In this document: positions 11,169-29,166 of the stretch, piece after piece
How the letters are laid out: each line of letters opens with the position of its first letter
Numbering within the stretch: position 1 is the stretch's first letter
NCBI GenBank assembly: GCA_963662265.2
Contig: CAXXHA010000032.1
Coordinates: 96,001-160,000, forward strand
Source of the DNA: Spirochaetia bacterium
Lineage (GTDB): Bacteria > Spirochaetota > Spirochaetia > CADAEX01
Length of the DNA: 64,000 nt
Direction of reading: 5' to 3'
Program-made: the position numbers and the translations under genes
Notes under the pieces: model-generated
Told to the model about the DNA's origin: nothing
The model's input: only the letters and a program-made list of their open reading frames with translations
The model's database searches: none

Positions 11169-11231
11169 TTGTCACCCGATATATAGTGTGATAATATCTT
11201 TTTATCAGAAAACAACACCCACATATAGCGG
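11169..11231 (+). promoter_or_regulatory. nrdR-nrdD promoter with two NrdR boxes
   Basis: TTGTCA-17bp-TAATAT. Boxes ACCCGATATATAGTGT (11174-11189) and CACCCACATATAGCGG (11216-11231) lie 42 bp apart and resemble the consensus ACACnATATATnGTGT. Confidence 0.8.
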
Positions 11232-11256
11232 GTAATTTATTAAGGGTAATTAAAAA

Positions 11257-11715
11257 ATGAAATGCCCTCATTGCGGCAATCCTGAAGACAGGGTTATAGA
11301 ATCACGACAGAATGCCAGCGCAACAGTAATACGAAGAAGGCGGGAATGTCTGGAATGCAGATACCGCTTCACATCCTATGAGCATATTGAAGAAAAGCAG
11401 CTCATGGTAATAAAGAGGGATGGAAGCAGAGAGAATTTCGACACCCAGAAGATTTTCAGAGGTCTTTCAAAATCGCTTGAAAAAAGACCTGTTACAGGAG
11501 ATCAGATTGAAGCGCTTCTTCACGCAATTGAAGATGAAGCATACAGCGTTGGAAAAAAAGGACACGAAATATCAACTGAAGATTTGGGCGAAATTGTGCT
11601 CAGACAGCTCTTCAAACTGGATAAGGTAGCATATGTCCGCTTTGCATCAGTCTACAAGATGTTCAGCAATGTAAATGAATTTATTAAGGAAATTGAAAAA
11701 ATACCTGAAGAATGA
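11257..11715 (+). CDS. nrdR: Transcriptional repressor NrdR
   Basis: Zn ribbon MKCPHC...RRRRECLEC, ATP cone, and VAYVRFASVY. Confidence 0.97.
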   Translation: MKCPHCGNPEDRVIESRQNASATVIRRRRECLECRYRFTSYEHIEEKQLMVIKRDGSRENFDTQKIFRGLSKSLEKRPVTGDQIEALLHAIEDEAYSVGKKGHEISTEDLGEIVLRQLFKLDKVAYVRFASVYKMFSNVNEFIKEIEKIPEE

Positions 11716-11832
11716 AAAGGCAGGCAGCACTTTCATCTCAGAGTACGGCAGGAAACGAATCTTAACACAGCTTCGTTTATTTTGCATGATCTGAGAAAAA
11801 TTTCAGGGACAATCAGAGGGGGGATTGTGACG

Positions 11833-13932
11833 GTGAATACCAGCAACGACTGGAAAGCCTTTCTGGATCTTGATGAACAGGGAAGCAGCAGAGTTATTCA
11901 GCAGATTGTAAAAAGAGACGGAAAAATTGAGCAGTATGACAGGTGGAAAATTGCCAGTGCAATAAGCAGGGCAATAATTGCAGTAAGAGAGAAAGAAGAC
12001 AAGGAACTTACAGAAAAACTTACTGCTAGAACAGAAGATAAAATCAGGGAATTCAAACTGACAAGGCATCCCAATTCAATACCTGCTATTGAGGAAATTC
12101 AGGATATTGTTGAAACTGTTCTCATAGAAGAAAACATGCCGTCAATTGCAAAAGCTTATATAATTTACAGGGTCAAGCATGAGGCACTCAGAGATGCCAG
12201 GAAACTGATGCTTGATATCAACTCTACAATGGACGGCTATCTTTCGCAGTCAGACTGGAGAGTCAACGAGAATGCAAATGTAAATTTCTCGCTGGGAGGG
12301 CTGATTCTCCATAATTCAGGAACAATAACTGCAAACTACTGGCTTAAAAATATCTATTCAGAAGATATTGCAGATGCTCACAAGAATGCCGACTTTCATA
12401 TTCATGACCTTTCAATGTTTTCAGGATACTGTGCAGGATGGTCACTGAGGCAGCTGATTCAGGAAGGACTCGGAGGTGTGCCGGATAAAATTACATCAAA
12501 GCCGGCAAAACACCTTTCAACCCTTGTTCAGCAGATTGTCAACTTCCTGGGAATAATGCAGAACGAATGGGCGGGTGCTCAGGCACTTTCAAGTTTTGAC
12601 ACATACCTTGCCCCGTTTGTAAAGGCTGACAAGCTTACACACAAGAATACAAAACAGTATCTGCAGAGCTTTGTTTTCGGAGTCAACACACCATCCAGGT
12701 GGGGAAGCCAGGCTCCGTTTACAAACATAACTCTCGACTGGACAGTACCGGAGGATCTTAAGGATAAACCGGCTATTGTAGGCGGTGTTGAAATGGATTT
12801 CACATACGGCGACTGCCAGAGGGAAATGGATATTATCAACAGGGCTTTTATAGAGCTAATGCTTGACGGAGATGCAAACGGACGGGGATTCCAGTACCCT
12901 ATTCCGACTTACAACATAACAAGAAATTTCGACTGGGACAGCGACAATGCAAAACTGCTTTTTGAAATGACTGCAAAATATGGAACACCTAATTTTCAGA
13001 ATTTCATTAACAGCGATCTCAACCCTGAGGATGTGAGGTCTATGTGCTGCCGTCTCCAGCTGGACAAAAGGGAACTCAGAAAACGGGGAGGGGGACTATT
13101 CGGTTCTGATGAATTTACAGGATCAATCGGCGTTGTAACTATCAACCTGCCCCGAATCGGCTATCTGGCCGGTTCAAAGGTTGATTTTTACAACCGTCTC
13201 TCAAACCTCATGGATATAGCATCAAAATCACTTTCAATCAAACGGAAAGTGATAAACAGGCTGATGAATGCGGGTCTTTTTCCATATACAAGGCGATATC
13301 TCAAGCACCTGAACAACCATTTTTCAACAATCGGTATTTCAGGAATGAACGAGTGCCTTTTAAACTTTCTGGGAAAAGATATAACTGAAGAAGAGGGAAA
13401 GGCATTTGCTGAAGAAATCCTTGATTTCATGAGAGAAAGGCTTTCTGAATATCAGGAAAAAACAGGTGATCTCTTCAACCTCGAAGCAACTCCTGCCGAG
13501 AGTACAAGCTATCGCCTTGCAAAGCATGACAGGGAACATTATCCCGATATTATTACATCAGGGGAAAAAGACCCTTATTACACAAACTCTTCCCAGCTGC
13601 CTGTTAACTTCACAACAGATATTTTCGAAGCGCTGGATCACCAGGAATCGCTTCAGACAAAATATACCGGCGGAACAATGTTTCACGGCTTTATCGGGGA
13701 AGCGCTTGATGACTGGGAATCATGCAGCAAACTTGTCAAAGCCATGGCAAACAACTATAAAATTCCGTTTTTTACTATTTCGCCGACCTTTTCCGTATGT
13801 CCGATCCACGGATACCTTTCAGGGGAGCACTTTTACTGCCCCAAATGCAAAGAGGAAGAGGAAAACGAAATAAAAAAACAGATTGCTGAATTAAAAAAAG
13901 AAAAAGAAAAATTAATCGGGGGGGAAAAATGA
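11833..13932 (+). CDS. nrdD: Class III anaerobic ribonucleoside-triphosphate reductase, catalytic part lacking the glycyl-radical loop
   Basis: ATP cone (IVKRDG), HIHDL, GYCAGWS, finger loop SMCCRL, EATPAES and Zn site CPIH/CPKC; ends without RIVGY. Likely GTG start at 11833 after GAGGGGGG; the ORF track opens at 11782. Confidence 0.93.
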   Translation: MNTSNDWKAFLDLDEQGSSRVIQQIVKRDGKIEQYDRWKIASAISRAIIAVREKEDKELTEKLTARTEDKIREFKLTRHPNSIPAIEEIQDIVETVLIEENMPSIAKAYIIYRVKHEALRDARKLMLDINSTMDGYLSQSDWRVNENANVNFSLGGLILHNSGTITANYWLKNIYSEDIADAHKNADFHIHDLSMFSGYCAGWSLRQLIQEGLGGVPDKITSKPAKHLSTLVQQIVNFLGIMQNEWAGAQALSSFDTYLAPFVKADKLTHKNTKQYLQSFVFGVNTPSRWGSQAPFTNITLDWTVPEDLKDKPAIVGGVEMDFTYGDCQREMDIINRAFIELMLDGDANGRGFQYPIPTYNITRNFDWDSDNAKLLFEMTAKYGTPNFQNFINSDLNPEDVRSMCCRLQLDKRELRKRGGGLFGSDEFTGSIGVVTINLPRIGYLAGSKVDFYNRLSNLMDIASKSLSIKRKVINRLMNAGLFPYTRRYLKHLNNHFSTIGISGMNECLLNFLGKDITEEEGKAFAEEILDFMRERLSEYQEKTGDLFNLEATPAESTSYRLAKHDREHYPDIITSGEKDPYYTNSSQLPVNFTTDIFEALDHQESLQTKYTGGTMFHGFIGEALDDWESCSKLVKAMANNYKIPFFTISPTFSVCPIHGYLSGEHFYCPKCKEEEENEIKKQIAELKKEKEKLIGGEK

Positions 13933-14438
13933 CATCAGTAGAAAAAATTGATTCACAGATCATTGAACTGGAAAGGCAGCTTAACGAAGTGAAAGGAACA
14001 GAAGCTGAAGTATATACAAGAATTGTAGGCTACTACAGGGCTGTTAAAAACTGGAACAAGGGAAAAAGAGAGGAATACAACCACAGGATCTGCTTTTCAG
14101 AATACAGCAGCACTGAAAAAAAAACAGAAAATGCTGCACCATGTGAAGAAAAAACAGACAGCCAGATAAGTTTTTCAGATGCGGTGAAATACAAATACTT
14201 TTTCAGAAAAACCTGCCCGAACTGCCCTTCTGTAAAGGGATATGTTGAAAACCTTGAGCTGGACAGCGAGCACATAGATGTGGATACAGAAAACGGGCTT
14301 GAATCAGCATCAGATTCACAGGTTTTCGGTGTGCCTACAGTAGTATTCTACGACAACAGCGACAATGAGATATTCAGGGCCCACAACCTGAAAGATCTTA
14401 AAGAAAATATTGATTCAGAAATAGCAGCAGCTGTTTAA
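13929..14438 (+). CDS. Stand-alone NrdD glycyl-radical domain fused to a glutaredoxin/thioredoxin-like domain
   Basis: EVYTRIVGYYRAVKNWNKGKREE, then FFRKTCPNC...GVPTVVF; ATGA overlap with nrdD. Confidence 0.88.
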   Translation: MTSVEKIDSQIIELERQLNEVKGTEAEVYTRIVGYYRAVKNWNKGKREEYNHRICFSEYSSTEKKTENAAPCEEKTDSQISFSDAVKYKYFFRKTCPNCPSVKGYVENLELDSEHIDVDTENGLESASDSQVFGVPTVVFYDNSDNEIFRAHNLKDLKENIDSEIAAAV

Positions 14439-14442
14439 TCAT

Positions 14443-15138
14443 ATGTCTGTAACAAAAGCAGGACTTCTGAAAACAACCCTGCTTGATTATCCCGGAAAGG
14501 TTGCATCAACTGTATTCCTTCCGGGATGTAATTTCAGATGTCCTTACTGCCACAACAGAGACCTTGTTCTGAATAATGATTATTCGCTGATTCCATCTGA
14601 AGATATTATTGAATATATCAATTCAAAAAAGAACATACTTGAAGGAATATGCATAACAGGCGGCGAGCCGCTCATACACAAAGATCTCAACATGCTTATC
14701 TCAAGAATAAAAGATATGGGGCTTTCCGTAAAACTGGATACAAACGGTTCATTTCCGGAAAAGCTCCCTGATATTAATGTTGATTATATTGCTATGGATA
14801 TAAAAACTGTTCCTGAAAAATACAGCCTTGTTGCAGGAAACATTATAGACAGGAATCTCAGTTCAAAAATAACAGAGTCGATAGACTGGATAAAGAATTC
14901 CGGTATTGATCATGAATTCAGGACAACTCTTGTACCCGGAATAGTTGATTACAGTGATATGGAAAAAATTGCGGAACTTGCAGAAGGATGCATGAGGTAC
15001 ACACTCAACAGGTTTCAGGCTGTCAACACACTTGACAGCGAATGGGAAAAACATATCACATATTCTGACGAAGAATACAAAGAGTTTGTCAGAATACTGG
15101 AAAAAAGAAATATACCTGCTGTATTGAGAGGTGCATAA
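14443..15138 (+). CDS. nrdG: Anaerobic RNR activating enzyme (radical SAM)
   Basis: Motifs LLDYPGK, GCNFRCPYCHN, ITGGEP and KLDTNGS. Confidence 0.93.
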   Translation: MSVTKAGLLKTTLLDYPGKVASTVFLPGCNFRCPYCHNRDLVLNNDYSLIPSEDIIEYINSKKNILEGICITGGEPLIHKDLNMLISRIKDMGLSVKLDTNGSFPEKLPDINVDYIAMDIKTVPEKYSLVAGNIIDRNLSSKITESIDWIKNSGIDHEFRTTLVPGIVDYSDMEKIAELAEGCMRYTLNRFQAVNTLDSEWEKHITYSDEEYKEFVRILEKRNIPAVLRGA

Positions 15139-26802: not shown

Positions 26803-29166
26803 TCAGCAGCCGAAATTCTGTTCAGTACGGTTGATAATCTCATCCTGAAGAGGTTTTTCAAGATTATTGAAATAATCGCTGTATCCTGCAACTCGGACAA
26901 TAAGATCTGAATACTGTTCAGGATTCTCCTGTGCCTTGAGCAGAATTTTCTTGTCAACAACATTGAACTGAATATGATGACCATCAAGTTTGAAATAAGA
27001 TCTTATCAGGGCAACTAGTTTGTCAATATTACTGTCCCCCTCAAGAACAGACGGAGAGAATTTCTGGTTGAGCAGGGTTCCTCCTGTTCTCAAATGGTCC
27101 ATTTTGGCAGCAGATTTCACTACAGCTGTAGGCCCGTTTCTGTCAGCATCTGTAGCAGGAGAAATACCTTCAGAAAGAGGCATACCGCTCTTCCTTCCGT
27201 CAGGTGTTGCACCGATTACTGAACCGAAATAAACATGGCATGTTGTAGGAAGCATGTTGATTCTGTACTGTCCACCATTCATTGTAGGTCTTCCGTCAAC
27301 AGAATCAAAATATGAATCAAAAATCATCTTCATCAGGTCATCAGCATAATCATCATCATTTCCATATTTGGGAGTCTTGTTCTTGAAGAGATTATGGATG
27401 GAAGGATCCTGAAAATCGTTATCAAGCGCTTCAAGAAGCTCTTTCATGGAAAGATTTTTTTCATCAAAGACATGTTTTTTTATGGAAGAAAAACTGTCAG
27501 TAATAGATCCTATACCTACTCCCTGAATATATCTCGTGTTATACCTGGCCCCGCCTGAATTATAATCTTTTCCCTCTTTAATACAGTCATCTATAATTAC
27601 AGAGAGAAAAGGTACCGGCATATAGTTGGAATAGATTTTCTCAATTGTATTATTGCCGTGAATCTTGATATTTATGAAATAATCCAGCTGCTTCTTGAAA
27701 GCATTGAAGAAATCATCAAATGACTGAAAATCTTCTGCTTTTCCTGTTTCAAGACCGAGTTTTTTACCAGTCATTTTATCAAGACCGTTGTAAAGAGTAA
27801 TTTCCATTATCTTGGTCAGGTTCATGTAGCCTGTAAGGATATATGATTCTTTACCGAATGCGCCTGTTTCAACACATCCGCTTGTTCCGCCGTCACGGGC
27901 ATCTTCAATTTTCTTTCCGGCTCTAACCATTTCAGAGACAACAGCATCAGCATTAAAAACTGAAGGCTGACCCCATCCCTCACGGATAACTTCGCATGCC
28001 CTTTTTACAAACTTGTTTGGATTCTTCTTGCTTACCTGTACATTTGAACTGGGCTGAAGAAGATGCATATCGCTTATAACATCAAGAACAAGGTAGGTAA
28101 CATCATTTACACCATCTTCCCCTTCTGCAGTAAGCCCGCCTGAATTGATATTGGCAAAATCTGTATATGTACCACTTTCCTTCAGAGTCACACCTACTTT
28201 TGGAGGTGCAGGCTGATTATTGAACTTGACCCAGAGGCATTCAAGGATTTCCCTTGCCTGATCCCTGTCGAGAGTTCCCTCTTCTGTTTCCTTTCTGTAA
28301 AAAGGATAGAGGTGCTGATCAAGCCTTCCGGGATTAAAGGAGTCCCAGTTATTCATTTCAGAAACAACAGCTATATGAACAAACCAGTACATCTGGACAG
28401 CCTGCTCAAATGTTTCAGGCGGATAAGCTGGTACTCTTCGGCAGTTGAGAGCTATTTTTTCAAGCTCACTCTTTCTGACCGGATCTTTTTCAGAAGCTGC
28501 CTTTTCCGCAGCATAATCAGCATAACGCCCGGCATACTTCATGATTGCATCACAGGTAACAGCCATTGCATCAAGCTGTTCCTTTTTTTCAAATGCTTTG
28601 GGATCATTCAGAAAATCAAGTTCTCCCGCAGCTTTTTCTATATCTTTTTTGAAATCAAGAAAACCTCTTTTATATATCTTACCATCAGCAACAGTATGGC
28701 CGGGGCCCCTCTGCTCCATGAATTCTGTGAAAATTCCTGCTGAATAACATTCTTTCCATTCATCAGTCATGGAAGAGAGTATTTTACCTCTCAAAGCCCT
28801 GTTTTCCCAGAAAGGAATTATTTCATTTTTCTGATACTCAAAAATTTCATCAGATACTTTATAGGAAATTTTCTTCCTTTTATTCATTATCTCGAAATCA
28901 TCCAGAGTATGACAGCATAATTCAGGATATGTGGAAGTGGCAGCAGGCCTCTCACCTCTTTCGCCGACTATAATTTCTCCATCATTAATACAGAGCTCCT
29001 TGTTTTCCATAATATTTTTAAAAACAAGAGCCCGCAGCATTGGGATTGATACTGTTCCTTCATATTTTTTATAAACTTCAGTAACAAGTTTAGCTCTCTC
29101 TATAGAAATACTCGGGACAGCGTTTAGACTCTGTTCTCTGAGCTTTATTACCCTTTCATTCATCAT
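26803..29166 (-). CDS. hypD: Glycyl radical enzyme trans-4-hydroxy-L-proline dehydratase
   Basis: HypD-type motifs QRGPGHTV, WDSFNPGRLD, ESGTYTDFAN, GGTSGCVETG, MLPTTCH and VRVAGYS; proC lies immediately downstream. Confidence 0.92.
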   Translation of the reverse strand: MMNERVIKLREQSLNAVPSISIERAKLVTEVYKKYEGTVSIPMLRALVFKNIMENKELCINDGEIIVGERGERPAATSTYPELCCHTLDDFEIMNKRKKISYKVSDEIFEYQKNEIIPFWENRALRGKILSSMTDEWKECYSAGIFTEFMEQRGPGHTVADGKIYKRGFLDFKKDIEKAAGELDFLNDPKAFEKKEQLDAMAVTCDAIMKYAGRYADYAAEKAASEKDPVRKSELEKIALNCRRVPAYPPETFEQAVQMYWFVHIAVVSEMNNWDSFNPGRLDQHLYPFYRKETEEGTLDRDQAREILECLWVKFNNQPAPPKVGVTLKESGTYTDFANINSGGLTAEGEDGVNDVTYLVLDVISDMHLLQPSSNVQVSKKNPNKFVKRACEVIREGWGQPSVFNADAVVSEMVRAGKKIEDARDGGTSGCVETGAFGKESYILTGYMNLTKIMEITLYNGLDKMTGKKLGLETGKAEDFQSFDDFFNAFKKQLDYFINIKIHGNNTIEKIYSNYMPVPFLSVIIDDCIKEGKDYNSGGARYNTRYIQGVGIGSITDSFSSIKKHVFDEKNLSMKELLEALDNDFQDPSIHNLFKNKTPKYGNDDDYADDLMKMIFDSYFDSVDGRPTMNGGQYRINMLPTTCHVYFGSVIGATPDGRKSGMPLSEGISPATDADRNGPTAVVKSAAKMDHLRTGGTLLNQKFSPSVLEGDSNIDKLVALIRSYFKLDGHHIQFNVVDKKILLKAQENPEQYSDLIVRVAGYSDYFNNLEKPLQDEIINRTEQNFGC

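Follow-up and report, generated by a model that had tools for sequence, protein, structure and literature searches.

A class III ribonucleotide reductase split over two genes in Spirochaetota, with a probable obligate subunit that joins the glycyl-radical loop to a thioredoxin-like domain

The window analyzed here is a stretch of 64,000 nucleotides from the genome of a Spirochaetia bacterium (CADAEX01; assembly GCA_963662265.2; contig CAXXHA010000032.1, positions 96,001 to 160,000 of the forward strand). On its plus strand, four genes stand in a row: nrdR, an nrdD gene for the large chain (body) of a class III ribonucleotide reductase (RNR), a small gene, and nrdG. The glycyl-radical (Gly) loop, which a class III NrdD usually carries at the C terminus of its own chain, is lacking from the body and is found in the small protein, together with a thioredoxin-like domain; the loop was separate from the body in all junctions analyzed. 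Judging from sequence and models, we consider it probable (roughly 0.7) that the four genes form one operon for a class III RNR that consists obligately of two chains and has its reductant tethered. A sequence-only reading of the locus had put forward a two-chain RNR, joined by a coiled coil, with its Gly loop on a CPNC-redoxin protein. That part of the proposal gained support from the recurring split, from unlinked genes in some relatives, from invariant residues, and from a model of the complex; the claim that the redoxin is the turnover reductant is one that its residues suggest.

Results

An NrdD body and a small protein with the Gly loop

The open frame of the body runs from TTG 11782 to 13932 (716 amino acids [aa]; body residue numbers count from this TTG), and GTG 11833, behind a GAGGGGGG Shine-Dalgarno site, appears the likelier start codon and is also the start coordinate in the sequence-only reading. 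The protein matches the Pfam profile NRDD over positions 1 to 532 of 562 (593.6 bits), in addition to an ATP-cone, and scores 1092 bits against NCBIfam NF006126 (cut-off, 548). Its C-terminal end, ...CPIHGYLSGEHFYCPKCKEEEENEIKKQIAELKKEKEKLIGGEK, lies behind the Zn site and a heptad tail, just as the sequence-only reading had described, and every element listed there for the next open reading frame (ORF), namely, an ATGA overlap, a helix, the RIVGYY motif, and a C-terminal CPNC redoxin, is present in the sequence. The small ORF covers NRDD positions 532 to 561 (30.4 bits; cut-off, 26.2), and the genome has no NRDD match besides the body and this small-ORF tail. Among the Pfam matches listed, the small ORF had none to the Gly_radical domain of the pyruvate formate-lyase (PFL) type; the loop matches the NRDD profile only.

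The best solved match of the body is NrdD of T. maritima (PDB 4COI; E, 3.3e-43), on which Tyr216-Cys217 aligns with Tyr124-Cys125, the finger loop Met421-Cys-Cys-Arg424 with SCCR, and Glu568 (in NLE) with the Glu of NIEQ. Invariant in 17 of 17 bodies were Y216, C217, M421-R424, N566-E568, C673, H676, C686, and C689. In PMC4493059, a third active-site Cys together with a Glu is the mark of the thioredoxin-type NrdD2 (for the role of the Glu in redoxin-type NrdD, see also PMC9669993). Since the body has both (CC in the finger motif and E568), redoxin chemistry is to be expected.

The small protein is conserved in both of its parts. All 32 aligned small subunits share G23, E27, Y29, R31-I-V-G34-Y-Y-R37, N41-W-N43, G45, K46, E49, and R53 in the N-terminal half and C96, P97, C99, D119, A127, P136, T137, and R150 in the thioredoxin part, and the linker between them (residues 57 to 85) varies in length and sequence. 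At an E value of ≤0.01, 32 of the 32 family members match NRDD and 28 match Glutaredoxin (best, 5.8e-9). An AlphaFold2 model (mean pLDDT, 76.1; pTM, 0.49) has a helix at residues 4 to 19, a hairpin (strands 29 to 32 and 35 to 38) whose tip is Gly34, a linker that is disordered (pLDDT of <50 at 64 to 79), and a beta-alpha-beta-alpha-beta-beta-alpha domain at about 86 to 167 (pLDDT, 84 to 94). In the latter, CPNC (C96-P-N-C99) sits at the N terminus of helix 99-107, as in thioredoxin-fold redoxins, and P136 would, from its position, be the cis-Pro of the thioredoxin fold. A Foldseek search of the PDB returned 189 matches at an E value of ≤0.001, with thioredoxins making up most of the top 50 and thioredoxin 1 of Thermosipho africanus (6mos; 89 aa; TM, 0.68 on the target; 28% identity) as the best. 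In the nearer relatives, the last three residues of the small subunit are a conserved x-Ala-Val (AAV, FAV, CAV, or QAV; window positions 14427 to 14435).

The split across the class and beyond

The sequence-only reading had suggested examining whether spirochaete orthologues split at the same point, and they do so in all loci of the junction surveys that could be analyzed. The small protein was matched in 31 of 41 related genomes (18 of 19 of the same family and 13 of 22 from other families of the class), and all full-length matches in these 31 genomes sit in an open frame of their own (162 to 199 aa). Among 20 related loci, the split is present in all 19 that could be analyzed (the one left out, L006, is without a body), with the body ending after a charged heptad tail; relative to the body, the small ORF has a frame offset of 0 in 3 loci, 1 in 6, and 2 in 10, and the junctions either overlap (ATGA or TAATG) or span 10 to 25 nucleotides with GGAG-type ribosome-binding sites. 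Longer stretches from 20 genomes, of which 8 were new, so that this set partly overlaps the first, yielded 19 complete junctions, the remaining locus being truncated by a contig end; all 19 are split, with gaps of -8 to +117 nucleotides and with TAA, TGA, and TAG as stops. A pattern scan of species-representative genomes found 587 relatives among 593 matched stretches, and the best 80 of the 587 by likeness to the query, a selection that is biased to the split type, were surveyed. A body stopping before the small ORF lies directly upstream in 79 of these 80 loci, the 80th having only 86 bases upstream. Here, offsets 0, 1, and 2 occur 25, 25, and 29 times and the stops TAA, TGA, and TAG 60, 16, and 3 times, some large negative gaps stemming from the choice of the first ATG; RIVGYYR is present in 80 of 80 loci, and the redoxin motif is CPNC in 78, CPSC in 1, and CPRC in 1. 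All 80 belong to Spirochaetota, including the cultured T. pectinovorum ATCC 33768, T. porcinum ATCC BAA-908, and Treponema sp. OMZ 840. Directly after the small gene follows nrdG in 19 of 19 complete loci and in 77 of 79 species-representative loci. The split is thus conserved across the class and beyond, and about 1899 such small proteins are present in public databases.

In the phylum as a whole, the small-subunit profile matched in 167 of 301 sampled genomes. Among the 150 matches listed, 38 are full-length (open frames of 162 to 226 aa, 4 of which run over a stop at the edge), 2 are one-chain forms (open frames of 835 and 846 aa), and 9 consist of the helix and Gly loop only (open frames of 105 to 148 aa), all of the last being from genus g26 (9 of 9 genomes). 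In two complete g26 genomes (G055 and G104; loci L043, L052, and L053), the distance between body and small gene is about 600 kb in one and about 95 kb in the other. The 708-aa body keeps its heptad tail and adjoins nrdR, and the small gene (95 aa), without the thioredoxin domain, adjoins nrdG. At the level of sequence, this distance is the strongest evidence that the two chains come together as separate proteins.

Other layouts were seen as well. In further families of Spirochaetota (L046, L049, and L051), a body of 685 to 700 aa without the second CxxC is followed by a 58-aa ORF with the Gly loop only and by nrdG, and some Spirochaetota genomes contain two to six tiny Gly-loop ORFs, one of which (L048; 85 aa) is on a contig other than that of nrdD. 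About 45 proteins of 800 to 890 aa are one-chain NrdDs with a thioredoxin domain that cover at least 76% of the small subunit. In all such forms examined except P0121, only 4 to 5 residues separate the ribbon from the Gly strand; the body-type heptad tail is absent from the one-chain proteins P0122, P0124, P0126, P0143, P0155, P0161, P0175, and P0181. In P0121 (885 aa), which also carries the thioredoxin domain, the two heptad helices form a hairpin ahead of the Gly loop; this protein is either an unsplit intermediate or a re-fusion. A tree of 33 NrdD bodies (a quick search only, with midpoint root and 10 of 30 inner branches open) intermingles the fused, canonical, and split forms, and given this and the weakness of the tree, we claim no order of events; an exception is the thioredoxin-less g26 form, which nests beside a thioredoxin-bearing split form (support, 98).

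Two single proteins were also encountered. In P0125 (320 aa), the Gly loop and thioredoxin domain run in frame into the NrdG activase, which may be a true fusion of radical subunit and activase or else reflect a lost stop or a truncated gene call on a 2-kb contig. P0003 (171 aa), 76% identical to the small subunit, is filed in EukProt under the eukaryote Anaeramoeba ignava as ORF 'p2' of a record and is probably from a spirochaete associated with that organism.

A predicted complex of the two chains

Prediction of the complex structure, one of the checks that the sequence-only reading had named, favored binding. With body residues 39 to 716 (17-row alignment) and the small chain (31-row alignment) as input, the model reached ipSAE values of 0.81, 0.82, and 0.82, versus 0.00 for the best of three controls; the mark for this score is attained by 116 of the 157 solved complexes used for calibration and by 2 of the 215 mismatched pairs, and the calibration is only rough here because our own alignments were used. 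The runs share at least 63% of their contacts, and the pLDDT of the partner is at least 70. Confident contacts involve body residues 693-694, 697-698, 700-701, 704-705, 707-708, and 711-712 and small-chain residues 3-4, 7-8, 10-11, 14-15, and 17-18, which in the model are the heptad faces of the two helices. Geometry and the hairpin of P0121 make antiparallel pairing most likely. Residues 21 to 58 of the small chain are placed against ribbon strands 665 to 690 and segments of the barrel. For the thioredoxin domain (86 to 169), the model has no confident contact with the body, which is not evidence either way. Taken as a whole, the model supports binding of the two chains.

Discussion

Proposed mechanism

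In the mechanism that we propose, the large chain would contribute allosteric regulation through its ATP-cone, the barrel with Cys217, the Met-Cys-Cys-Arg finger loop, Glu568, and the zinc ribbon, while the small chain would be translated by coupling at the ATGA overlap, behind a G-rich ribosome-binding site. The N-terminal helix of the small chain would zip, most likely antiparallel, onto the tail helix of the large chain, and its beta-hairpin would pair with the zinc-ribbon strands, bringing Gly34 inside the barrel. There, Gly34 is the putative residue on which NrdG would form the radical. A flexible linker of about 30 residues would tether the minimal thioredoxin domain (CPNC and cis-Pro loop), whose most likely role is to reduce the active-site disulfide again at the end of every turnover and which may itself be recycled by thioredoxin reductase; the genome encodes such a reductase (381 bits; NCBIfam cut-off, 343). 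For this role as turnover reductant, which the residues of body and redoxin suggest, the best precedent is the glutaredoxin on NrdB of Facklamia ignava.

Weighing the two-chain reading and its alternatives

Several points weigh against an obligate two-chain RNR with a tethered reductant. Its radical site, the binding of its chains, and the role of its reductant are predictions from sequence and models, and the calibration of the complex score and the choice of the 80 loci have the limits given above. Moreover, when a gene is split, resemblance to solved one-chain NrdD tends to carry its halves through the complex test, the helix-helix part being the only portion of the interface without a solved precedent known to us. 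The small ORF scores below the cut-offs for redoxins (Glutaredoxin, 18.7 versus 22.9; Thioredoxin, 17.8 versus 23.5; TIGR00411, 20.6 versus 92.75 bits); that is, fold and catalytic motif of a thioredoxin-like domain are present but no curated subfamily cut-off is reached. The thioredoxin domain is absent in 9 of 9 sampled g26 genomes, hence dispensable there, and canonical one-chain relatives of 711 to 718 aa (P0175 and P0181) have neither the helices nor this domain; it is, accordingly, an accessory and not a necessity. The finger loop (MCCR) retains a Met that is associated with formate chemistry in PMC9669993, so that formate may also be used beside the redoxin chemistry expected from the third Cys and the Glu. 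Lastly, a class I/II RNR in all five relatives tested means that the class III enzyme need not be essential.

Among the other readings, a tentative one, which the sequence-only reading offered as a way of limiting the cost of O2 cleavage, is that the small subunit is an exchangeable cartridge, akin to GrcA/YfiD: a new copy would take the place of a radical-plus-reductant subunit that O2 has cleaved at Gly34, and the 700-aa body would be spared. The radical would indeed reside on a separate chain that costs little to make and that a helix pair holds in zipper fashion, the genes can be unlinked with the small one remaining beside the activase gene, and the two to six tiny Gly-loop ORFs per genome of other Spirochaetota are of the NrdD type. 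A June 2026 review gives spare-part proteins as known so far for formate lyases only and treats other enzymes as an open question (PMC13450708). We might, again with rather low likelihood, be dealing with a glycyl-radical cofactor that can detach from its RNR and would be the first such part outside PFL, loaded by NrdG while free and then zipped onto the body with its own reductant. If so, copies cleaved by O2 would be replaced while the 700-aa body is retained, and the Gly loop would not need to swing out of the barrel to the activase, as it does in one-chain enzymes. However, the small gene is single-copy here, most of the listed genomes with a thioredoxin-type subunit have one match, and the ATGA overlap suggests coupled synthesis at 1:1. 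The body, unlike PFL, is without a Gly loop of its own, which makes the small chain an obligate subunit and not a spare.

It is unlikely that the thioredoxin-like domain, instead of being the turnover reductant, serves activation or maintenance (keeping the Cys residues of the Zn ribbon or finger loop reduced for NrdG) or redox sensing. E. coli NrdD reportedly needs thioredoxin for its activation. The domain is fused near the Gly loop and Zn ribbon, not at the substrate side, and is dispensable in g26, both of which would fit such a role; on the other side stand the full residue set of a redoxin-type NrdD in the body (third Cys and Glu) and the absence of any canonical PFL, the usual source of formate, from what was found in this 90.6%-complete genome. 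A tethered glutaredoxin on a class I NrdB, furthermore, was shown to act as RNR reductant (PMC6187632).

The remaining alternatives concern the junction itself, which reads ...ATC GGG GGG GAA AAA TGA, with G7 at 13918 to 13924 and A5 at 13925 to 13929, followed by TGA; the ATG of the small ORF overlaps the body stop. The small ORF lies in the -1 frame, so that one added base would fuse both ORFs, and the arithmetic of the sequence-only reading on this point is correct. Programmed -1 frameshifting or transcriptional slippage on G7/A5 could thus yield a fused one-chain NrdD in this genus, beside or in place of the two chains, all the more as AAA and then TGA behind a homopolymer run could slip and as the ATGA overlap with a purine run recurs in all three genomes of the genus. 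We regard this as highly improbable. The purine run differs among the three (G7A5, G6A6, and GGGAGGA7), whereas all three encode GG(E/K)K and have the ATG at a fixed distance, which fits a Shine-Dalgarno site with translational coupling and not a slippery site; the junctions of relatives likewise show GGAGG, GGGAGG, or GGGGGG ahead of the small-gene start codon. Outside the genus, the even spread of offsets over 0, 1, and 2, gaps of more than 100 nucleotides, intervening stops, and the unlinked genes of g26 rule out programmed frameshifting as a general mechanism. A sequencing or assembly error or a recent pseudogene, the former raised by the sequence-only reading on account of the homopolymer runs, can be dismissed, since the split appears in all junction surveys with varied offsets, stops, and spacing, since both chains are strongly conserved, and since Logan contigs (not raw reads, and some possibly a source of this assembly) from four runs in two studies show 0 differences and 0 gaps over 13700 to 14200, with four records bridging the junction.

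The locus and its genomic context

The features of the locus are collected in Table 1. A promoter-like TTGTCA-17-TAATAT (11169 to 11197) overlaps the two NrdR-box-like palindromes upstream of nrdR. The first palindrome is the window's best match to an NrdR-box consensus (2 mismatches on both strands), and the second was spotted by eye. Matches to this consensus across the window (7) are not above the number expected by chance (4.3 ± 2.7), and it is its position alone that makes the best match suggestive. Downstream of the promoter-like site, no terminator-like site was found on the plus strand before 15433, which is consistent with a single nrdR-nrdD-small-nrdG transcript. A small share of the words (0.16) was present in one metatranscriptome run.

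Table 1. Features of the split class III RNR locus (window positions)
Feature	Position	Strand	Remarks
NrdR-box-like palindromes (two), upstream of nrdR	11174-11189 and about 11217-11233		Lead only
nrdR	11257..11715	+	152 aa; transcriptional repressor of RNR genes; Zn_ribbon_NrdR, 64.7 bits; ATP-cone, 81.4 bits
nrdD body	11833..13932	+	ATP-cone, alpha/beta barrel, MCCR finger loop, Zn ribbon; without Gly loop
Finger loop, Met421-Cys422-Cys423-Arg424	13042..13053	+	Aligned to SCCR 328-331 of T. maritima NrdD (4COI)
Zn ribbon, Cys673, His676, Cys686, Cys689	13798..13848	+	All on body chain; aligned to C-terminal ribbon of T. maritima NrdD
Heptad tail helix of body, residues 690-712	13849..13917	+	Confident complex-model contacts with small-subunit helix
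Junction	13918..13932	+	G7 and A5 runs (Shine-Dalgarno of small gene); ATGA stop/start overlap
Small radical subunit	13929..14438	+	169 aa; helix 4-19, Gly-loop hairpin 29-38, linker 57-85, thioredoxin fold 86-169
Gly34 of small subunit	14028-14030	+	Putative radical site
Cys96-Pro-Asn-Cys99 of small subunit	14214-14225	+	
nrdG	14443..15138	+	Radical-SAM activase of class III RNR; TIGR02495 (NrdG2), 180.4 bits; cut-off, 131.15

The one PFL-like protein found in the genome is a glycyl-radical enzyme of 787 aa encoded in the window (26803 to 29166, minus strand), with ORFs of 268 and 300 aa flanking it on the same strand; its TIGR01255 score (133 bits) is so far below the cut-off of 994 that it is not a true PFL. 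A class I/II RNR large subunit (PF02867) was not found in the genome at its 90.6% completeness. This is probably an assembly gap: the relatives that carry one include both of the same genus, and the idea that the class III enzyme is the sole RNR of the cell was dropped for that reason.

Relation to known enzymes

Among the closest described systems is NrdD2 (Neisseria bacilliformis; T. maritima NrdD, PDB 4COI/4U3E), which shares with the body the beta-A Tyr-Cys, a double-Cys finger, the active-site Glu, and a CxxH...CxxC ribbon and for which a protein redoxin is the likely electron donor. NrdD2 is, however, a single chain with the Gly loop at its own C terminus and a free thioredoxin, whereas here the Gly loop and thioredoxin are on a second polypeptide, two extra helices join the chains, and the finger reads MCCR, not SCCR. 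The one-chain thioredoxin NrdDs (810 to 885 aa; for example, P0124, P0143, P0155, and P0121) share with the small subunit the succession of Gly loop, variable linker, and CPNC domain and are 36 to 46% identical to it over 76 to 96% of its length, but they are unsplit and mostly without the two helices; we found no description of them in the literature searched.

Like the small subunit, GrcA/YfiD is a small separate protein with a glycyl-radical loop that docks into the large barrel of another chain. GrcA, however, stands in for a loop that PFL itself possesses and that has been damaged, while the large chain here has none; the loop here is of the NrdD type (Pfam NRDD), not of the PFL type, and GrcA is without a redoxin domain. 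Neither hallmark of the GrcA/YfiD spare part, a host with its own Gly domain and a PFL-type domain in the part itself, is thus seen in the small subunit. To our knowledge, every glycyl-radical enzyme described so far has its radical glycine on the catalytic polypeptide, with GrcA, the PFL spare, as the functional exception.

NrdJa/NrdJb of Pseudomonas aeruginosa (class II) is likewise a split RNR, with a C-terminal zinc-finger and redox-active part on the second chain; it depends on B12, has no glycyl radical, and has reducing cysteines, not a radical, in the part split off. An extra folded element ending the first chain is proposed to hold these chains together (PMC9669993 and PMC4520616), and split domains are described as distinct to class II (PMC9669993). 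In Facklamia ignava, a redoxin is covalently on the radical-bearing small RNR subunit, as here, but the enzyme is class I, with an N-terminal glutaredoxin on a ferritin-like subunit; the fused glutaredoxin is an efficient reductant of the holoenzyme (PMC6187632). The database survey in the same paper has only one grx::nrdD fusion (Lachnospiraceae bacterium) and no split NrdD, and its Table S1 may list more fusions. Within the full-text literature searched, a scope outside which most subscription journals fall, neither a split NrdD nor a protein combining Gly loop and thioredoxin was found described.

Significance

In public records, the protein of about 170 aa goes by 'anaerobic ribonucleoside-triphosphate reductase' or 'thiol reductase thioredoxin', and because of such annotation, RNR surveys that expect one chain would score the bodies as truncated. 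In a whole bacterial lineage, including cultured Treponema and many spirochaetes of gut and rumen, the radical loop of the anaerobic RNR lies on what is probably an obligate second chain, and in most of this lineage the second chain also bears a thioredoxin. If the two-chain reading is right, these organisms would offer a natural system for the access of an activase to a buried glycine, for the exchange of a radical subunit after oxygen damage, and for the access of a protein reductant to the active site of a class III RNR.

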